This document shows positions 12,461 through 16,877 of a stretch of 22,685 nucleotides of DNA, piece by piece. Origin of the DNA: a virus (taxonomy: Duplodnaviria > Heunggongvirae > Uroviricota > Caudoviricetes); IMG/VR virus record IMGVR_UViG_2734482779_000007. One strand, written 5' to 3'. The notes beneath the pieces were generated by a model. That model did not search any database. It was not told where the DNA came from and was given only the letters and a program-made list of their open reading frames with translations. Positions within the stretch are counted from its first letter, which is position 1, and the number at the start of each line of letters is the position of its first letter. The position numbers and the translations under genes are program-made.

Positions 12461-12485
12461 CGGGGCATAAAAAATTTATGCCCCG
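12461..12485 (+). terminator. Candidate terminator hairpin after portal gene Q
   Basis: 11-bp perfect stem CGGGGCATAAA / TTTATGCCCCG with 3-nt loop, 27 nt after the Q stop. No U-run follows. Confidence 0.35.
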
Positions 12486-12858
12486 ACTCTCCAGCTCCTG
12501 TATCAGTCAGATAATTTCACGACGCTTTCCTGCTGATTGCCATCATCGACAGTCAGACTCTTACGCAATCCCACCGCGTTGACTGCATGTTCTCGCCGTC
12601 TCAGTGCGATTTTGACGGCCTTACCTTTCACCCCATCAAATCAAAAGCCCTCACGTCTTTTTCACGCTCAGCGTGAGAAATACAGCCATTCTGTTGTATC
12701 TCTGCGACATCGTTCAGGGAATGCTATTTACCCCCTGAAACGCGGGCTGTTCCCCCGTCACTTGCGCGCAGAAAAAACGCGTTTTTTTGTGCATGCACGG
12801 ATCCCTGACGGATCCAGCCACCATGCGGGCCGGAAGGGTAAAAAGTCGTTCAAAAAAA

Positions 12859-12923: not shown

Positions 12924-13130
12924 CTAAATACGTTTCACAATACCCACAAGATTGCCAGGTGACAGTTCTGCTGTGTGTTTAATATCGTCCACTATGTACG
13001 ATGCATGTTCACGGTTAATCGCATAGATATAAAATGAGTACTTCCGTTCATCTGCCATAAAGTCGACAGAAAATAATTTCCATGTACGCCCCTCGACTTC
13101 AACCTGTAACGGCATATTTATTCCGCTCAC
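12924..13130 (-). CDS. Hypothetical small protein (68 aa)
   Basis: ORF MSGINMPLQVEVEGRTWKLFSVDFMADERKYSFYIYAINREHASYIVDDIKH...; first codon GTG at 13130 is preceded by AAAGGAG. Last gene of the minus-strand small-ORF cluster before the cos region. Confidence 0.4.
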   Translation of the reverse strand: MSGINMPLQVEVEGRTWKLFSVDFMADERKYSFYIYAINREHASYIVDDIKHTAELSPGNLVGIVKRI

Positions 13131-13156: not shown

Positions 13157-13597
13157 TTAAATATTTTCGTTACGAAGCATGGCGGCGCGGCAGGCTTCAT
13201 CAACCATAGCTTCTACGTTTTCGAGAAGTACGTAACTGTACTGCTGCCCACTAACCCATTCTTTTCTGCGAGGTAATGCGCGTGGGTCAGATACAATAGC
13301 TCGCAAACGTTCCAGAACAGTTGGTACTGCTGGCGGCTCGCGATACAGCGAGATTACACGACGCGGGTCCGCATATTTATCTGGCGGACACTGAAATATC
13401 TCACCGAAACCATACTTCCTGACATCGCGCAGTTCCTCTTCATCAGTCCATGCCACCGGTTCTGCTTCCAGCGATGCCAGAGCAATCCGTGCCAGCTCTT
13501 CCGCTTCTTCTGCTGGCAGTACAACGTTGCTACCAGGTCCGTATGTTTCGCGCCACTGCTTGATTGTCAGCAGTCGCTCTTTGGTTATAGTTGTCAT
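13157..13597 (-). CDS. Hypothetical protein (146 aa)
   Basis: ORF MTTITKERLLTIKQWRETYGPGSNVVLPAEEAEELARIALASLEAEPVAWTDEEELRDV...; ATG overlaps upstream stop (ATGA). No recognisable domain. Confidence 0.5.
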   Translation of the reverse strand: MTTITKERLLTIKQWRETYGPGSNVVLPAEEAEELARIALASLEAEPVAWTDEEELRDVRKYGFGEIFQCPPDKYADPRRVISLYREPPAVPTVLERLRAIVSDPRALPRRKEWVSGQQYSYVLLENVEAMVDEACRAAMLRNENI

Positions 13598-13803
13598 TTG
13601 TTAACCCTCAAAACTTTATGCCCGGGCGCAAAAGCACGTGTTTTGTCTTTGCTTATTCGCCAGCCATCCTTACGCGCCTCTTTTGCACAACCAGCCCATG
13701 ACGTACCGATATACTCTCCGAAGTCTGGCGACTTATATTTGCCATCTGTACACTGGAGGCAATCACAATAGAGATGCATGGTGTAACTTGCAGCGATAGC
13801 CAT
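13594..13803 (-). CDS. Hypothetical small Cys-rich protein (69 aa)
   Basis: Within ORF 13594..13824 the ATG at 13803 is preceded by AAAGGAGAG and gives MAIAASYTMHLYCDCLQCTDGKYKSPDFGEYIGTSWAGCAKEARKDGW (C-x-C-x2-C...C, possible metal site). Confidence 0.45.
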   Translation of the reverse strand: MAIAASYTMHLYCDCLQCTDGKYKSPDFGEYIGTSWAGCAKEARKDGWRISKDKTRAFAPGHKVLRVNK

Positions 13804-13804
13804 A

Positions 13805-13978
13805 TCACTCTCCTTTGATACCAATGTTTACAGTCTGGCAAGCTTCTCTGAGCACCCAGTCAACAGCGTCTTTCCATGCTCCGGTTTCGGTTGGCGGATT
13901 CTCACGCTTTACCAGTTCGCCGTTCTCAGTCCATGCCAGCTTGATGTTGGTGGAGCCGTCGTCGATACAAATTTTCAT
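13805..13978 (-). pseudogene. ParM/StbA-like N-terminal fragment (57 codons), probable remnant
   Basis: Unlisted minus-strand ORF, ATG 13978 preceded by [43 protein letters not shown]... begins like plasmid R1 ParM ([21 protein letters not shown], phosphate-1 motif) but stops after 57 codons. Confidence 0.35.
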
Positions 13979-14012
13979 GTCGCTTTTCCTTATGTTGATT
14001 AATTAATCGTTT

Positions 14013-14037
14013 ACGGGATTCTGAAATCCCGTTTTTT
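14013..14037 (+). terminator. Plus-strand intrinsic-terminator-like hairpin 1 downstream of gene A
   Basis: Stem ACGGGATT (14013-14020) / AATCCCGT (14025-14032), loop CTGA, followed by T6 (14032-14037) on the plus strand. Confidence 0.5.
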
Positions 14038-14048
14038 CCTGTTTTGTG

Positions 14049-14077
14049 CGCGCTTCAAATATCGCTGCGCGTTTTTT
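14049..14077 (+). terminator. Plus-strand terminator-like hairpin 2 overlapping the A stop codon
   Basis: Stem CGCGC (14049-14053) / GCGCG (14067-14071), 13-nt loop, followed by T6 (14072-14077). Confidence 0.35.
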
Positions 14078-16877
14078 GCTCATTTACGGGATTCGTGAGT
14101 CCCGTTTCTGTCTGTTTTTTGTTTTCACTGGTCAGGCCACCCCGCAGCAGGTCTGCTTTGCGGCGGGCGCGTTCAGTGGTTTCACTGATTCTCTGTGCGT
14201 GCTCTGTGTCGCGGATGGCGCTCAGCATGTCAGAAAGCACGGTAACGGGTGTTTTCATGGTGTTCTGGTCCTGCTGAAGTGTGGATGCCAGGCGTGCGGC
14301 GGCTTCAGGGTCTGATGCCCCCAGCTGCGCCAGATAGCTGGCGACCGGGTTATGGCGGATCTCCGTGCTGCTTACGCCGTGATTACGGCTCAGGCGTTGC
14401 CAGAGCTGCGTGATTCGGCTGTCCGGGCGGGTATCCGGTTTGCGTACAATTTCAAATCCCTGCGGTGCAATGATGCTGCCGTCAATGTACAGACTGCCGC
14501 CCCGTAACAGGTGCTGCATCTGTTGTTCACCGATATGCAGGCCGAGAGATTCAGCAGACTCCCGCCATTCTTTAGCGAGTAATTCGTGGTTATCAGGCAA
14601 AGGCCGCTGCTGTTTGCGGCTCTGTGTCCAGCTCTGCATTTCATCACTGCTGTTTTTTGCCTGTTTGTCACGAAGCGAACGCATCAGCGCCCGGCGTTCG
14701 TGCCGTTTCAGTGAGCGCATCCATTCGTTCACTTCAACGCCGTCAGGGAGCTGCGGCCACGGTGCTGGCCGTTCTTCCGGCTGTTCTGTCCCGTTGTTGT
14801 CCGTTTCCTGTACACGGGGACAGTTATTGCCACGAGTCCAAGGGGCGGCAGGGCCGCCCTGAAGGTCAAAACCATTTTCGCGGGTGCTGTCTTCCGCTTC
14901 CGGTTTACGTCTTACCAGCTTCCAGTTATCCGGATGCGTGCACACACGGGAGGATTCCCCGATGAGTGGTGACCAGATCCCGTAAATCTGTACGCTCTGT
15001 TCACCGTAATCGTTCAGCTCATCTGCGAGGTCGTAGGCGGTGCGAATCAGGTAGTCTTTGCGTGGAACAAGTACGCCGCCCTGTTTCTCTATGTAGGTGG
15101 CAAAACATCCGGCATCAGCGGCAGCGAGTACCGCATCCATTGCGTCATCCTTCAGCTGTTGCGGGCCTTCCGGGTTGCGTGCCATCTGGCTGGCAAGGCG
15201 ACGCAGTTCACGCCACACCTGACGGGAGGGGATACCAAAGAACTGGAACTGGCGGACACGGTGAAGGCGCGCCCAGCCGATGGCGCGTTCCACGCTCTCG
15301 GCCATTGACTTTCCGGTTTCGTGGTCAACGCGTGGCTTGCCCGTTTTCGGGTCGGTGCCATCCACGGCGCGGCTGTCCAGGTTCTTTCCGATGTAGGTGG
15401 CGATGTAGCTGGTTGGCGTGCCTTTTGAGCCGTCTACGTACTCCGCCTTAAAACGCGGAGTAATATCATTGCCCAGCTCGTGGCGGTCTTCCTGAATGGC
15501 AATATCACGGGTGTGGGACACAATGGTGTCGATTTCTTCCGGATGAGCAAAGACCATCATATGCCAGTGCACGGTGCCGTCATGGTGAGGCTCCACCGTG
15601 CGGATGCCATACCAGCGCAGGCCGTCGCGGTTCAATTTCTTGCGGACCGCTGCAAAAAACGTGTTAACCAGGTAATCGCTGGAGTCGCGCATGGTGGCCC
15701 CGTTCCATTTGGGATTCGGATGACCGTTCTCTGTTGTGGCGTGGTATTTTGACGGGCAGGTGACAGTCAGAAACACCGCTTTGTCGCCACGGGCTTCGGC
15801 CAGAAGTTCCAGCCCCTTCATGGTGGCCATCATTTCTGCCTTACGGTGAACCGGGTTACTTACTCCCGCGTAATACACTGTCTCGAGATCAATCGTGAAC
15901 CCGTCTTCGTTTTCCAGCATGAAACTTTTCAGGAAGTCGCGTGTTTTCTCGCGCTGTGCGCGAAATTCACTTAATGCATCCTGACTCAGATAGGGGGATG
16001 TTTTTCTGGAAACCAGACAGGCAGCGCGGAGTTGTTCCTCTCTCCATTCGCAACGTAAAAGCCACAATTTGCGTTTCCACCAGTCCGCACAGGTCAGGCG
16101 AAGGATTGCACCCGGCAGCAGTTCTGTGTCCGGTTCGTTCCTCCGGTCTTTGTCTGTTGTCAGTGCGTCATAATGCGGAGGCACTGTGTGCAGATGTAAC
16201 GCCATGCGAGCCAGCAGCTGATACGCCTTCAGCGTTATATCCATGGTCAGCTCGCCATCGGTCGCGCCAAAGCCATCGCAGAGTTTTTCGAAGGTGCTGC
16301 TGAACATTGCCGCCGTCATGACGGCCAGTGTCTGTATCTGGTGTTTGTTGAGCTGCGGCAGGTAAAGTAAATCGTCCAGACGTTCACGTCCGGCAAGGGA
16401 GCGATAACCCGGAGTCAGCCAGCGTCCGTCAGTGCGGGCCAGACGTTCCAATATTTTGCGCAGGGTTCCGCGTGCATAGCGTTCCGCCTGCCAGCTCTTT
16501 TTGCCTTTCCGGCGATCGGCTTCCTGTTTTTTGCGCAGGAAGGAGAGGTGGCGAATAAGCGGATCGCGCAGATAGGACGGCAGCAGGCGCAGCGAGGCCA
16601 TGGCTTCATCCACCGCACCGCGTGCCTGTTTTCTGGCTTCTCTGGCCAGTGTGATGGTTTTGTCCTGCTTTTCCTGTGCGTCCAGGCTTTTATTAATCAG
16701 GTTGCCCAGCGGTGTGGCGGAGAACGCCGCGTCAGCCATTTCCTGGCGGCGCTCGTTCTCTGCCCGGTAGGCATCCAGCCAGGAGGAAAGTGCGGATTCA
16801 GGTGCGGGGATCCCCGTTCCTTCACGTCCTACTGCGTGGCGCGGTTGTTGCCAGTCCCTGATGTACTCTGCCGTCAT
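14055..16877 (-). CDS. A: Replication initiation endonuclease A (rolling-circle HUH initiator, P2 gpA family)
   Basis: 940-aa ORF, the largest in the early operon. Contains ...GIRTVEPHHDGTVHWHMMVF... (HUH-type metal site) and ...TSYIATYIGKN... (catalytic Tyr region) as in P2 gpA, but is longer than P2 A (~761 aa). Confidence 0.85.
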   Translation of the reverse strand: MTAEYIRDWQQPRHAVGREGTGIPAPESALSSWLDAYRAENERRQEMADAAFSATPLGNLINKSLDAQEKQDKTITLAREARKQARGAVDEAMASLRLLPSYLRDPLIRHLSFLRKKQEADRRKGKKSWQAERYARGTLRKILERLARTDGRWLTPGYRSLAGRERLDDLLYLPQLNKHQIQTLAVMTAAMFSSTFEKLCDGFGATDGELTMDITLKAYQLLARMALHLHTVPPHYDALTTDKDRRNEPDTELLPGAILRLTCADWWKRKLWLLRCEWREEQLRAACLVSRKTSPYLSQDALSEFRAQREKTRDFLKSFMLENEDGFTIDLETVYYAGVSNPVHRKAEMMATMKGLELLAEARGDKAVFLTVTCPSKYHATTENGHPNPKWNGATMRDSSDYLVNTFFAAVRKKLNRDGLRWYGIRTVEPHHDGTVHWHMMVFAHPEEIDTIVSHTRDIAIQEDRHELGNDITPRFKAEYVDGSKGTPTSYIATYIGKNLDSRAVDGTDPKTGKPRVDHETGKSMAESVERAIGWARLHRVRQFQFFGIPSRQVWRELRRLASQMARNPEGPQQLKDDAMDAVLAAADAGCFATYIEKQGGVLVPRKDYLIRTAYDLADELNDYGEQSVQIYGIWSPLIGESSRVCTHPDNWKLVRRKPEAEDSTRENGFDLQGGPAAPWTRGNNCPRVQETDNNGTEQPEERPAPWPQLPDGVEVNEWMRSLKRHERRALMRSLRDKQAKNSSDEMQSWTQSRKQQRPLPDNHELLAKEWRESAESLGLHIGEQQMQHLLRGGSLYIDGSIIAPQGFEIVRKPDTRPDSRITQLWQRLSRNHGVSSTEIRHNPVASYLAQLGASDPEAAARLASTLQQDQNTMKTPVTVLSDMLSAIRDTEHAQRISETTERARRKADLLRGGLTSENKKQTETGLTNPVNEQKTRSDI
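14086..14120 (+). terminator. Plus-strand terminator-like hairpin 3 inside the 3' end of gene A
   Basis: Stem ACGGGA (14086-14091) / TCCCGT (14100-14105) followed by a T-rich tract ending in T6 (14115-14120). TTTACGGGATTC is a direct repeat of hairpin 1 (14010-14021 vs 14083-14094). Confidence 0.4.

Follow-up and report, generated by a model that had tools for sequence, protein, structure and literature searches.

A probable orphaned parC-like control region at the 3′ end of replication gene A in a P88-like prophage

Why should an essential replication gene have, at its 3′ end, hairpins that look like terminators for the opposite strand? The question is raised by the 22,685 nucleotides of viral DNA analysed here (IMG/VR record IMGVR_UViG_2734482779_000007; this whole stretch is called the window below), a P88-like prophage (Xuanwuvirus, Peduoviridae) whose replication endonuclease gene, A, lies on the minus strand. 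An earlier note on this DNA had described three hairpins at the end of A, each followed by a T-run on the plus strand, and had taken them for plus-strand terminators insulating A or for the 3′ end of an antisense RNA, adding that a motif repeated in them might be a protein-binding site. That last remark is the one that the comparative evidence, which is evidence from sequence, favours. We consider it probable that positions 13979-14119 are the orphaned parC-like region, ParR operator and centromere, of a type II ParMRC partition cassette of which little else is left in this prophage. Three features frame the argument.

14055-16877, minus strand: gene A, replication endonuclease of 940 amino acids (Pfam Phage_GPA, E 1.6e-129)
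13979-14119, minus strand: putative parC-like 5′ control block of parM-parR, ~141 bp, comprising two dyad boxes with a central region, and an ATTAAT box; orphaned here
13915-13978, minus strand: 5′ remnant of parM, 21 codons, MKICIDDGSTNIKLAWTENGE (Pfam StbA_N residues 1-28, E 3e-8)

A probable control block ahead of parM

In P88 and in Citrobacter phage Shae_phiSM, the next genes after A, and on its strand, are parM and then parR, which encode a 319-residue protein with StbA_N and ParM domains (E 1e-82) and a 103-residue protein of the Plasmid_stab_B family (PF10784, E 1.6e-24). The two genes make up a partition cassette of R1 type (type II). The homology of the window to P88 ends at 13915, where parM is cut after 21 codons, and there is no parR. 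The A protein, 30% identical to A of P2, has its stop codon at 14055-14057, its last ~21 codons (14058-14119) reaching into the par control block, and hairpin 1 sits in the 76-bp spacer that separates A from the parM remnant (ATG at 13978), which the earlier note had passed over. The overlap with the 3′ end of A that had been ascribed to all three hairpins therefore holds for hairpin 3 and for half of hairpin 2, but not for hairpin 1. Because the parM remnant and the junction at 13915 lie next to it, the stretch is located where the control region of a truncated parMR would be expected. Comparison with P2 and 186, which the earlier note had proposed, is uninformative, both A genes being without this 3′ region and P2 being without parMR after A.

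We recovered parMR cassettes located after A from P2-like prophages of Escherichia, Citrobacter, Hafnia (two types), Plesiomonas, Serratia and Enterobacter, and compared the extent of homology around the block. In L047 (IMGVR_UViG_2547132279_000014), A diverges from the window at 14641, and homology resumes exactly at 14119 and continues down to 13915. Between P88 and Hafnia L095 (ParR 74% and ParM 95% identical as proteins), nucleotide identity climbs from 45-65% in the last part of A to 70-80%, the step lying at about -146 as counted from the parM ATG, and is 85-90% within parM. Other genes can intervene: Hafnia L100 and L190 have a 167-residue open reading frame (ORF) after A and ahead of the block, and a methyltransferase-like ORF together with a 71-residue ORF lies between A and parM in Enterobacter L103. 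In L187 the block heads a 93-residue ORF that is followed by parM-parR, and in P88, Shae_phiSM, L003, L004, L095, L099, L100 and L190 it is directly upstream of parM-parR. Given the breakpoint in L047, the step in identity at about -146, the intervening ORFs and the gene order in L187, the block is the head of the cassette; by these comparisons, 13979-14119 travels with parM and not with A.

Two of these relatives have further peculiarities. In L047 (2082-2924), A ends ~480 codons earlier relative to window coordinates, and an extra, unrelated 155-residue ORF after A enters the par control block and stops at the TGA used by A in the window. The inserted 93-residue ORF of L187 (1200-1481; MKRQVNSAEAEDELEEL...) is part of a Hafnia-type cassette and has its own copy of an ATTAA and ribosome-binding-site-like leader.

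Two dyad boxes and their conservation

Within the block, the symmetrical elements are arranged as follows, positions upstream of parM being counted from the first ATG of the cassette (in L187 that of the 93-residue ORF, not of parM).

14088-14103: box 1 (distal), GGGACTCACGAATCCC on the gene strand, starting at -125 from the parM ATG; core of hairpin 3, within the last codons of A
14015-14030: box 2 (proximal), GGGATTTCAGAATCCC on the gene strand, starting at -52 from the parM ATG; core of hairpin 1
13998-14007, minus strand: ATTAAT box, following box 2 and ahead of the ribosome-binding site
14013-14032: hairpin 1, ACGGGATTCTGAAATCCCGT, 8 bp with 4 G-C pairs and a 4-nt loop
14086-14105: hairpin 3, ACGGGATTCGTGAGTCCCGT, 8 pairs with a 4-nt loop
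14048-14072: middle hairpin 2, or central G-C dyad, a 6-bp G-C stem with a 13-nt loop, between the boxes and including the A stop codon
14030-14045, 14070-14085 and 14103-14118, plus strand: three copies of a T-rich 16-nt motif, at spacings of 40 and 33 nt

The direct repeat that had been seen in two of the hairpins is real: TTTACGGGATTC occurs at 14011 and at 14084, 73 bp apart, both copies being part of a 42-nt direct repeat (79% identity) with hairpins 1 and 3 at the repeat cores. The corresponding pattern, CGGGATT-N4-AATCCCG, has two sites in the 22.7-kb window, both of them here, against ~0.1 expected by chance. A shorter pattern, GGG-N10-CCC (16 bp), is found exactly twice in the 200 nt upstream in every lineage whose ParR has the N-terminus TRR(I/V)SFYL, at nearly constant positions.

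Window and P88: box 1 at -125, box 2 at -52, spacing 73 bp
L095: box 1 at -124, box 2 at -51, spacing 73 bp
Plesiomonas L099: box 1 at -131, box 2 at -59, spacing 72 bp
L100, L190 and L187: box 1 at -128, box 2 at -55, spacing 73 bp

In mononucleotide shuffles the chance of such a box pair is ~1-2e-5 per 200-nt sequence, a figure that is indicative only, the pattern having been defined post hoc. The invariant columns in an alignment of seven sequences from four lineages are GGGA..AA.CCC in box 1, CGGG..A.CCC, and the ATTAA box, which is identical in all seven and precedes the start codon by 20-25 nt. Hafnia L095 has its A stop codon within box 1, and both boxes and their spacer are kept despite the different coding overlap, so that the tail of A is not conserved for what it encodes. 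Centre to centre, the GGGA and TCCC half-sites are 12 bp apart, about one helical turn, and the 73 bp between the boxes correspond to ~7 turns, placing both boxes on the same face of the DNA.

Where ParR differs, so do the upstream elements. The boxes were not found in the Serratia and Enterobacter cassettes, in which ParR starts with NRKISFYL and inverted GGGAAC plus ATAGAAAAAT elements stand in place of the boxes, nor were they found ahead of five parM genes of plasmids. The ATAGAAAAAT unit is similar to the TATTTTTCT repeats that precede parM in the IncL/M and IncF plasmids compared here (L006, L007). A long inverted repeat, GGGAAC-(A/G)A(A/T)ATAGAAAAAT ... ATTTTTCT(A/G)TTTC-GTTCCC, is arranged around a G-C dyad in the 130 nt before parM of the Serratia and Enterobacter prophages L102 and L103.

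From its position, size and layout, the block would be the parC counterpart of the P88-type cassette. P88-like P2-family phages carry the ParMRC cassette last in their early operon, next to A, and the functional core of the block would be two 16-bp dyad boxes (GGGA-N8-TCCC), followed by the ATTAAT box and the parM ribosome-binding site. ParR, as a ribbon-helix-helix adaptor, would bind both boxes, and the resulting complex would be the centromere complex that captures ParM filaments; by binding there ParR would probably repress the promoter of its own cassette too, just as at parC of R1, in which case operator and promoter would overlap. The ATTAAT box may be a -10-like element, and the head-of-cassette position of the block in L187 hints at a promoter. 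Replacement by lambdoid DNA at 13915 removed parR and all but 21 codons of parM, so that the site in the window would be a relic, and the plus-strand appearance of hairpins with T-runs would be a by-product of dyad symmetry and A-rich flanks in one lineage.

Several observations weigh against this account. Cognate ParR and ParM in cis are present in the intact relatives and not in the window, where the boxes are candidate sites for a ParR that the window does not encode. There are two dyad boxes, unlike the tandem repeat arrays of characterised parC sites, and box 2 has CCT rather than CCC in about a quarter of the loci in the P88 population. Within that population there are two ParR types (L001 versus L003 and L004; 103 and 104 residues, 52% identical), in which the N-terminal 18 residues and the C-terminal LFPE are identical and the middle is divergent, with ParM 99% identical, and the box variants show no co-variation with these two types. 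Neither a scan nor inspection by eye revealed a convincing sigma-70 promoter on the gene strand of the block, the ATTAAT box failing the criteria of the scan, and the operator role is drawn by analogy. In addition, the box pattern was defined after inspection of the data, and the four lineages that share it are homologous rather than independent inventions. Finally, hairpins and T-runs are kept in the P88/Hafnia lineage, and a secondary terminator activity is possible there.

Other readings of the hairpins

That hairpins 1 and 3, and perhaps 2, are plus-strand intrinsic terminators, stopping antisense transcription into A or ending an antisense RNA, is in our judgement improbable, in spite of the features that suggest it. 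Hairpins 1 and 3 both reach -10.2 kcal/mol as plus-strand RNA (z -3.5 and -3.0), their 8-bp stems are followed by T-rich tails, and both were called by a pattern scan for terminators. The middle hairpin, by contrast, is at shuffle level (z -0.6, with 48 of 200 shuffles folding equally well) and was not called, so that two of the three hairpins first described stand out; the seven terminator-like matches between 12000 and 16000, for 4.1 +/- 2.0 expected, are as a count alone unremarkable. The T-runs are the three copies of the T-rich 16-mer, one after each hairpin and A-rich, of AAAAC type, on the gene strand; TTTTTT directly follows the stem of hairpin 1, and the tail of hairpin 3, which has one G-U pair among its 8 bp, is weaker (TTCTGTCTGTTTTTT; UUCUGUCUG). 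The stems of hairpins 1 and 3 have only four G-C pairs. A common hairpin 3 polymorphism, gene-strand T to C, leaves a G-U wobble on the plus strand only, in favour of a plus-strand RNA, but two common hairpin 1 polymorphisms are A-C mismatches on that strand. A possible source of antisense transcription is a plus-strand promoter-like site at 13564-13591 (TTGTCA-16-TATAGT, 10/12), ~420 bp upstream, but no plus-strand gene ends here, either in the window, where the nearest plus-strand ORF of at least 100 residues ends at 12962, or in P88, where the 2.5 kb from Q to the site are transcribed from the other strand and the genes of the Q-A interval all lie on it. Read-through from P-Q, which the earlier note had offered as the source, would already meet, once past Q and cos, a G-C hairpin followed by seven T that is the stronger terminator-like site on the plus strand (P88 L001 1896-1914; window ~12765-12790, plus strand). 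P88 and Hafnia L095 keep the hairpin and T-run features, whereas in L099, L100, L190 and L187 the elements are kept in position and stem stability and T-tails are lost: the orthologous boxes fold at -4.1 to -4.6 kcal/mol (one at -8.2 with a 10-nt loop), the 8-nt tail on the antisense strand has 1-3 T compared to 5-7 in the P88/L095 lineage, and the T-rich 16-nt motif is missing, being confined to the P88 and L095 lineage. The combination of stem and U-tract is thus conserved in P88 and L095 only. The central dyad region is likewise variable among P88-type loci, with its loop replaced in some, and is not conserved in L099 and L100. Neither insulation of A by plus-strand terminators nor the antisense RNA 3′ end, which is part of the same proposal, is borne out by these comparisons.

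A structured RNA between A and parM in the early transcript of the minus strand (sense), acting as a processing or stability hairpin or in translational coupling of parM, we regard as very improbable. The 146-nt stretch does fold better than 200 of 200 shuffles on both strands, with z -4.1 on the minus strand, and the frequent hairpin 1 variants A1 to G and C18 to T are G-U wobbles on minus-strand RNA, as are the changes in Hafnia hairpin 2 compatible with wobble pairing on that strand. Yet the common hairpin 3 variant is mismatched on the minus strand, no compensatory double changes were seen, the stems are not conserved in L099 and L100, and in L187 the block precedes another ORF and not parM; among 53 distinct P88-type variants, the signal for an RNA strand from G-U versus A-C polymorphisms was mixed, with no consistent asymmetry. 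The stretch has no Rfam match, a covariance search of Rfam 15 returning only a chance-level rpsB small RNA (15.7 bits versus a gathering threshold of 40, E 0.92). Unlikely, though less so, is that the boxes bind a protein other than ParR, such as a host factor or phage regulator, or are elements of promoter architecture without centromere function. The invariance of the ATTAA box, the constant position of the block at the head of the cassette, a box layout unlike known parC arrays and the lack of co-variation with ParR type in the P88 population all speak for such a site; occurrence of the boxes only with ParR of the TRR(I/V)SFYL type, with other repeats where ParR differs, and a position, size and arrangement of two repeats around a core that fit parC argue instead for ParR. 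The motif is not known to match any host-factor site. As for a replication origin or nick-site structure for the A protein, P2-family origins do lie within the 3′ part of A and rolling-circle sites are often near inverted repeats, but the block moves with parM and not with A, and we find this explanation scarcely credible. The homologue of the annotated P2 nick site (GCGCCTCGG/AGTCCTGTCAATAACTGT) is CCTTGGACTCGTGGCAATAACTGT, within A at ~14826-14860 on the minus strand, about 700 bp from the hairpins; its translation gives AAPWTRGNNC as the aligned peptide, and it is the likely replication origin of this prophage.

Some neighbouring plus-strand sites can be recorded in their own right. The promoter-like site at 13564-13591 is the best sigma-70-like match between 12000 and 16000, a consensus match only, directed towards the hairpins and antisense to the lambdoid ORFs. 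Directly after the portal gene, at 12463-12487, there is a long A/T-centred dyad, GGGGCATAAAAAATTTATGCCCC; this and the hairpin at ~12765-12790 are common to the window and P88 and are candidate terminators of the P-Q transcript.

Occurrence, significance and comparison with known systems

Downstream of the block, the parM remnant runs into foreign DNA. The minus-strand ORF at 13805-13978 is a chimera of 57 residues made of the 21 parM codons and lambdoid/Stx-phage DNA, its C-terminal part matching phrog_26213 and the region outside parM matching phrog_26213 and phrog_660. The next minus-strand ORFs, at 13594-13824, 13157-13597 and 12924-13130, match lambdoid phrogs of no assigned function. 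The P88-type cargo region has been replaced through recombination with a lambdoid phage, with the junction at 13915.

Searches of phages by blastn, of IMG/VR (with ParM, a ParM alignment and diverged ParMs) and of GTDB genomes returned only near-identical relatives, and tblastn of plasmids with ParR returned only P88-like prophages inside large 'plasmid' records. Among the papers searched, none dealt with parMR of P88-like or Xuanwuvirus phages. One plasmid record, NZ_CP148288.1 (L191, pZ1323PEC0009-2), is a complete P88-like genome of 34,461 bp from an E. coli isolate of a cat, deposited as a circular non-mobilizable 'plasmid', with int, cox, A, parM, parR, P, Q, tail genes and ogr; it may be an episomal or excised form, being compatible with an episomal state and no proof of one, and has a bearing on the reason for a partition cassette in these phages. 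In another record, L092 (NZ_JBQPOM010000071.1, labelled Vagococcus sp.), a 226-kb Firmicute contig encodes a ParM with 98% identity to that of the E. coli phage, probably by contamination or mislabelling of the assembly.

For annotation, what looks like an antisense terminator cluster in the end of an essential replication gene would be the head of a deleted neighbouring cassette, a caution for terminator prediction in mosaic phage genomes. More interesting than the relic itself is phage-borne ParMRC in integrative P2-like phages: in Escherichia, Citrobacter, Hafnia, Plesiomonas, Serratia and Enterobacter, the early operon of such phages repeatedly closes with an R1-type, actin-like segregation cassette, and the candidate centromere that accompanies one ParR subgroup is unusually simple, a pair of dyad boxes at a distance of seven helical turns. 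Should ParR bind the boxes, they would be a small model centromere, easy to mutate, in which to study how ParMRC works, and one would have to ask what use DNA segregation is to a phage whose normal course is to integrate. As a speculation that we hold to be rather doubtful, P88-like and related P2-family phages of Enterobacterales might use ParMRC with a minimal two-box centromere for genome positioning and segregation or for a plasmid-like carrier state, and orphan relics such as this one could titrate ParR and so interfere with co-resident or superinfecting relatives, a form of prophage incompatibility.

How does the block compare with known elements? Like intrinsic terminators, hairpins 1 and 3 are followed by T-rich tracts on the plus strand; unlike them, they have no plus-strand transcription unit ending at them, their stems are weak and the features are lost in diverged relatives. 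The operators of ribbon-helix-helix proteins such as Arc, Mnt and CopG have inverted half-sites about one helical turn apart, and the half-sites of the boxes have the geometry that would be expected for a dimer of ribbon-helix-helix dimers; the Arc, Mnt and CopG sites differ in being plain repressor operators with no centromere role.

The closest parallel is parC of plasmid R1, a 159-bp region upstream of parM in which two sets of repeats, ten tandem 11-bp direct repeats in all (2 x 5), flank a 39-bp promoter core, and at which ParR both represses the promoter and builds the complex pushed by ParM filaments (PMC2241845). The block resembles it in lying directly upstream of parM, in its size of ~140-160 bp and in its two repeat units around a core; ParR is of the same StbB family (PF10784), with an N-terminus in the P88-type protein that can be aligned with that of R1-type ParR, and the A-rich, AAAAC-type flanks and a similar ribosome-binding region, CATAAGGA, recur in the R1-type sequence of L010. 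It differs in having two 16-bp dyad boxes 73 bp apart and no recognisable sigma-70 promoter, that of R1 being defined, and in its place in the early operon of an integrative P2-like phage, with the cassette proteins missing in the window. Direct homology to parC of R1 and other plasmids (L006-L010) was considered and rejected, the sequences being unalignable beyond the ribosome-binding region and having only their A-rich character in common. pSK41, for its part, has four 20-bp repeats.

That an integrative phage should have use for such a cassette has a precedent in the AlpA/AlpC/alpS system of the Corynebacterium prophage CGP3, in which an adaptor binds repeats upstream of its operon and which supports efficient replication of phage DNA (PMC4446434). 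Common to both is an integrated prophage with an actin-like filament protein and a DNA-binding adaptor; in CGP3 the adaptor gene comes first, the repeats are 24 short TTAAnnG sequences, the protein families are unrelated and the host belongs to another phylum. Altogether, the element would be of a known kind, R1-type parC of a ParMRC system, and modestly novel in its two-box repeat layout and in the integrative phage that serves as its replicon.

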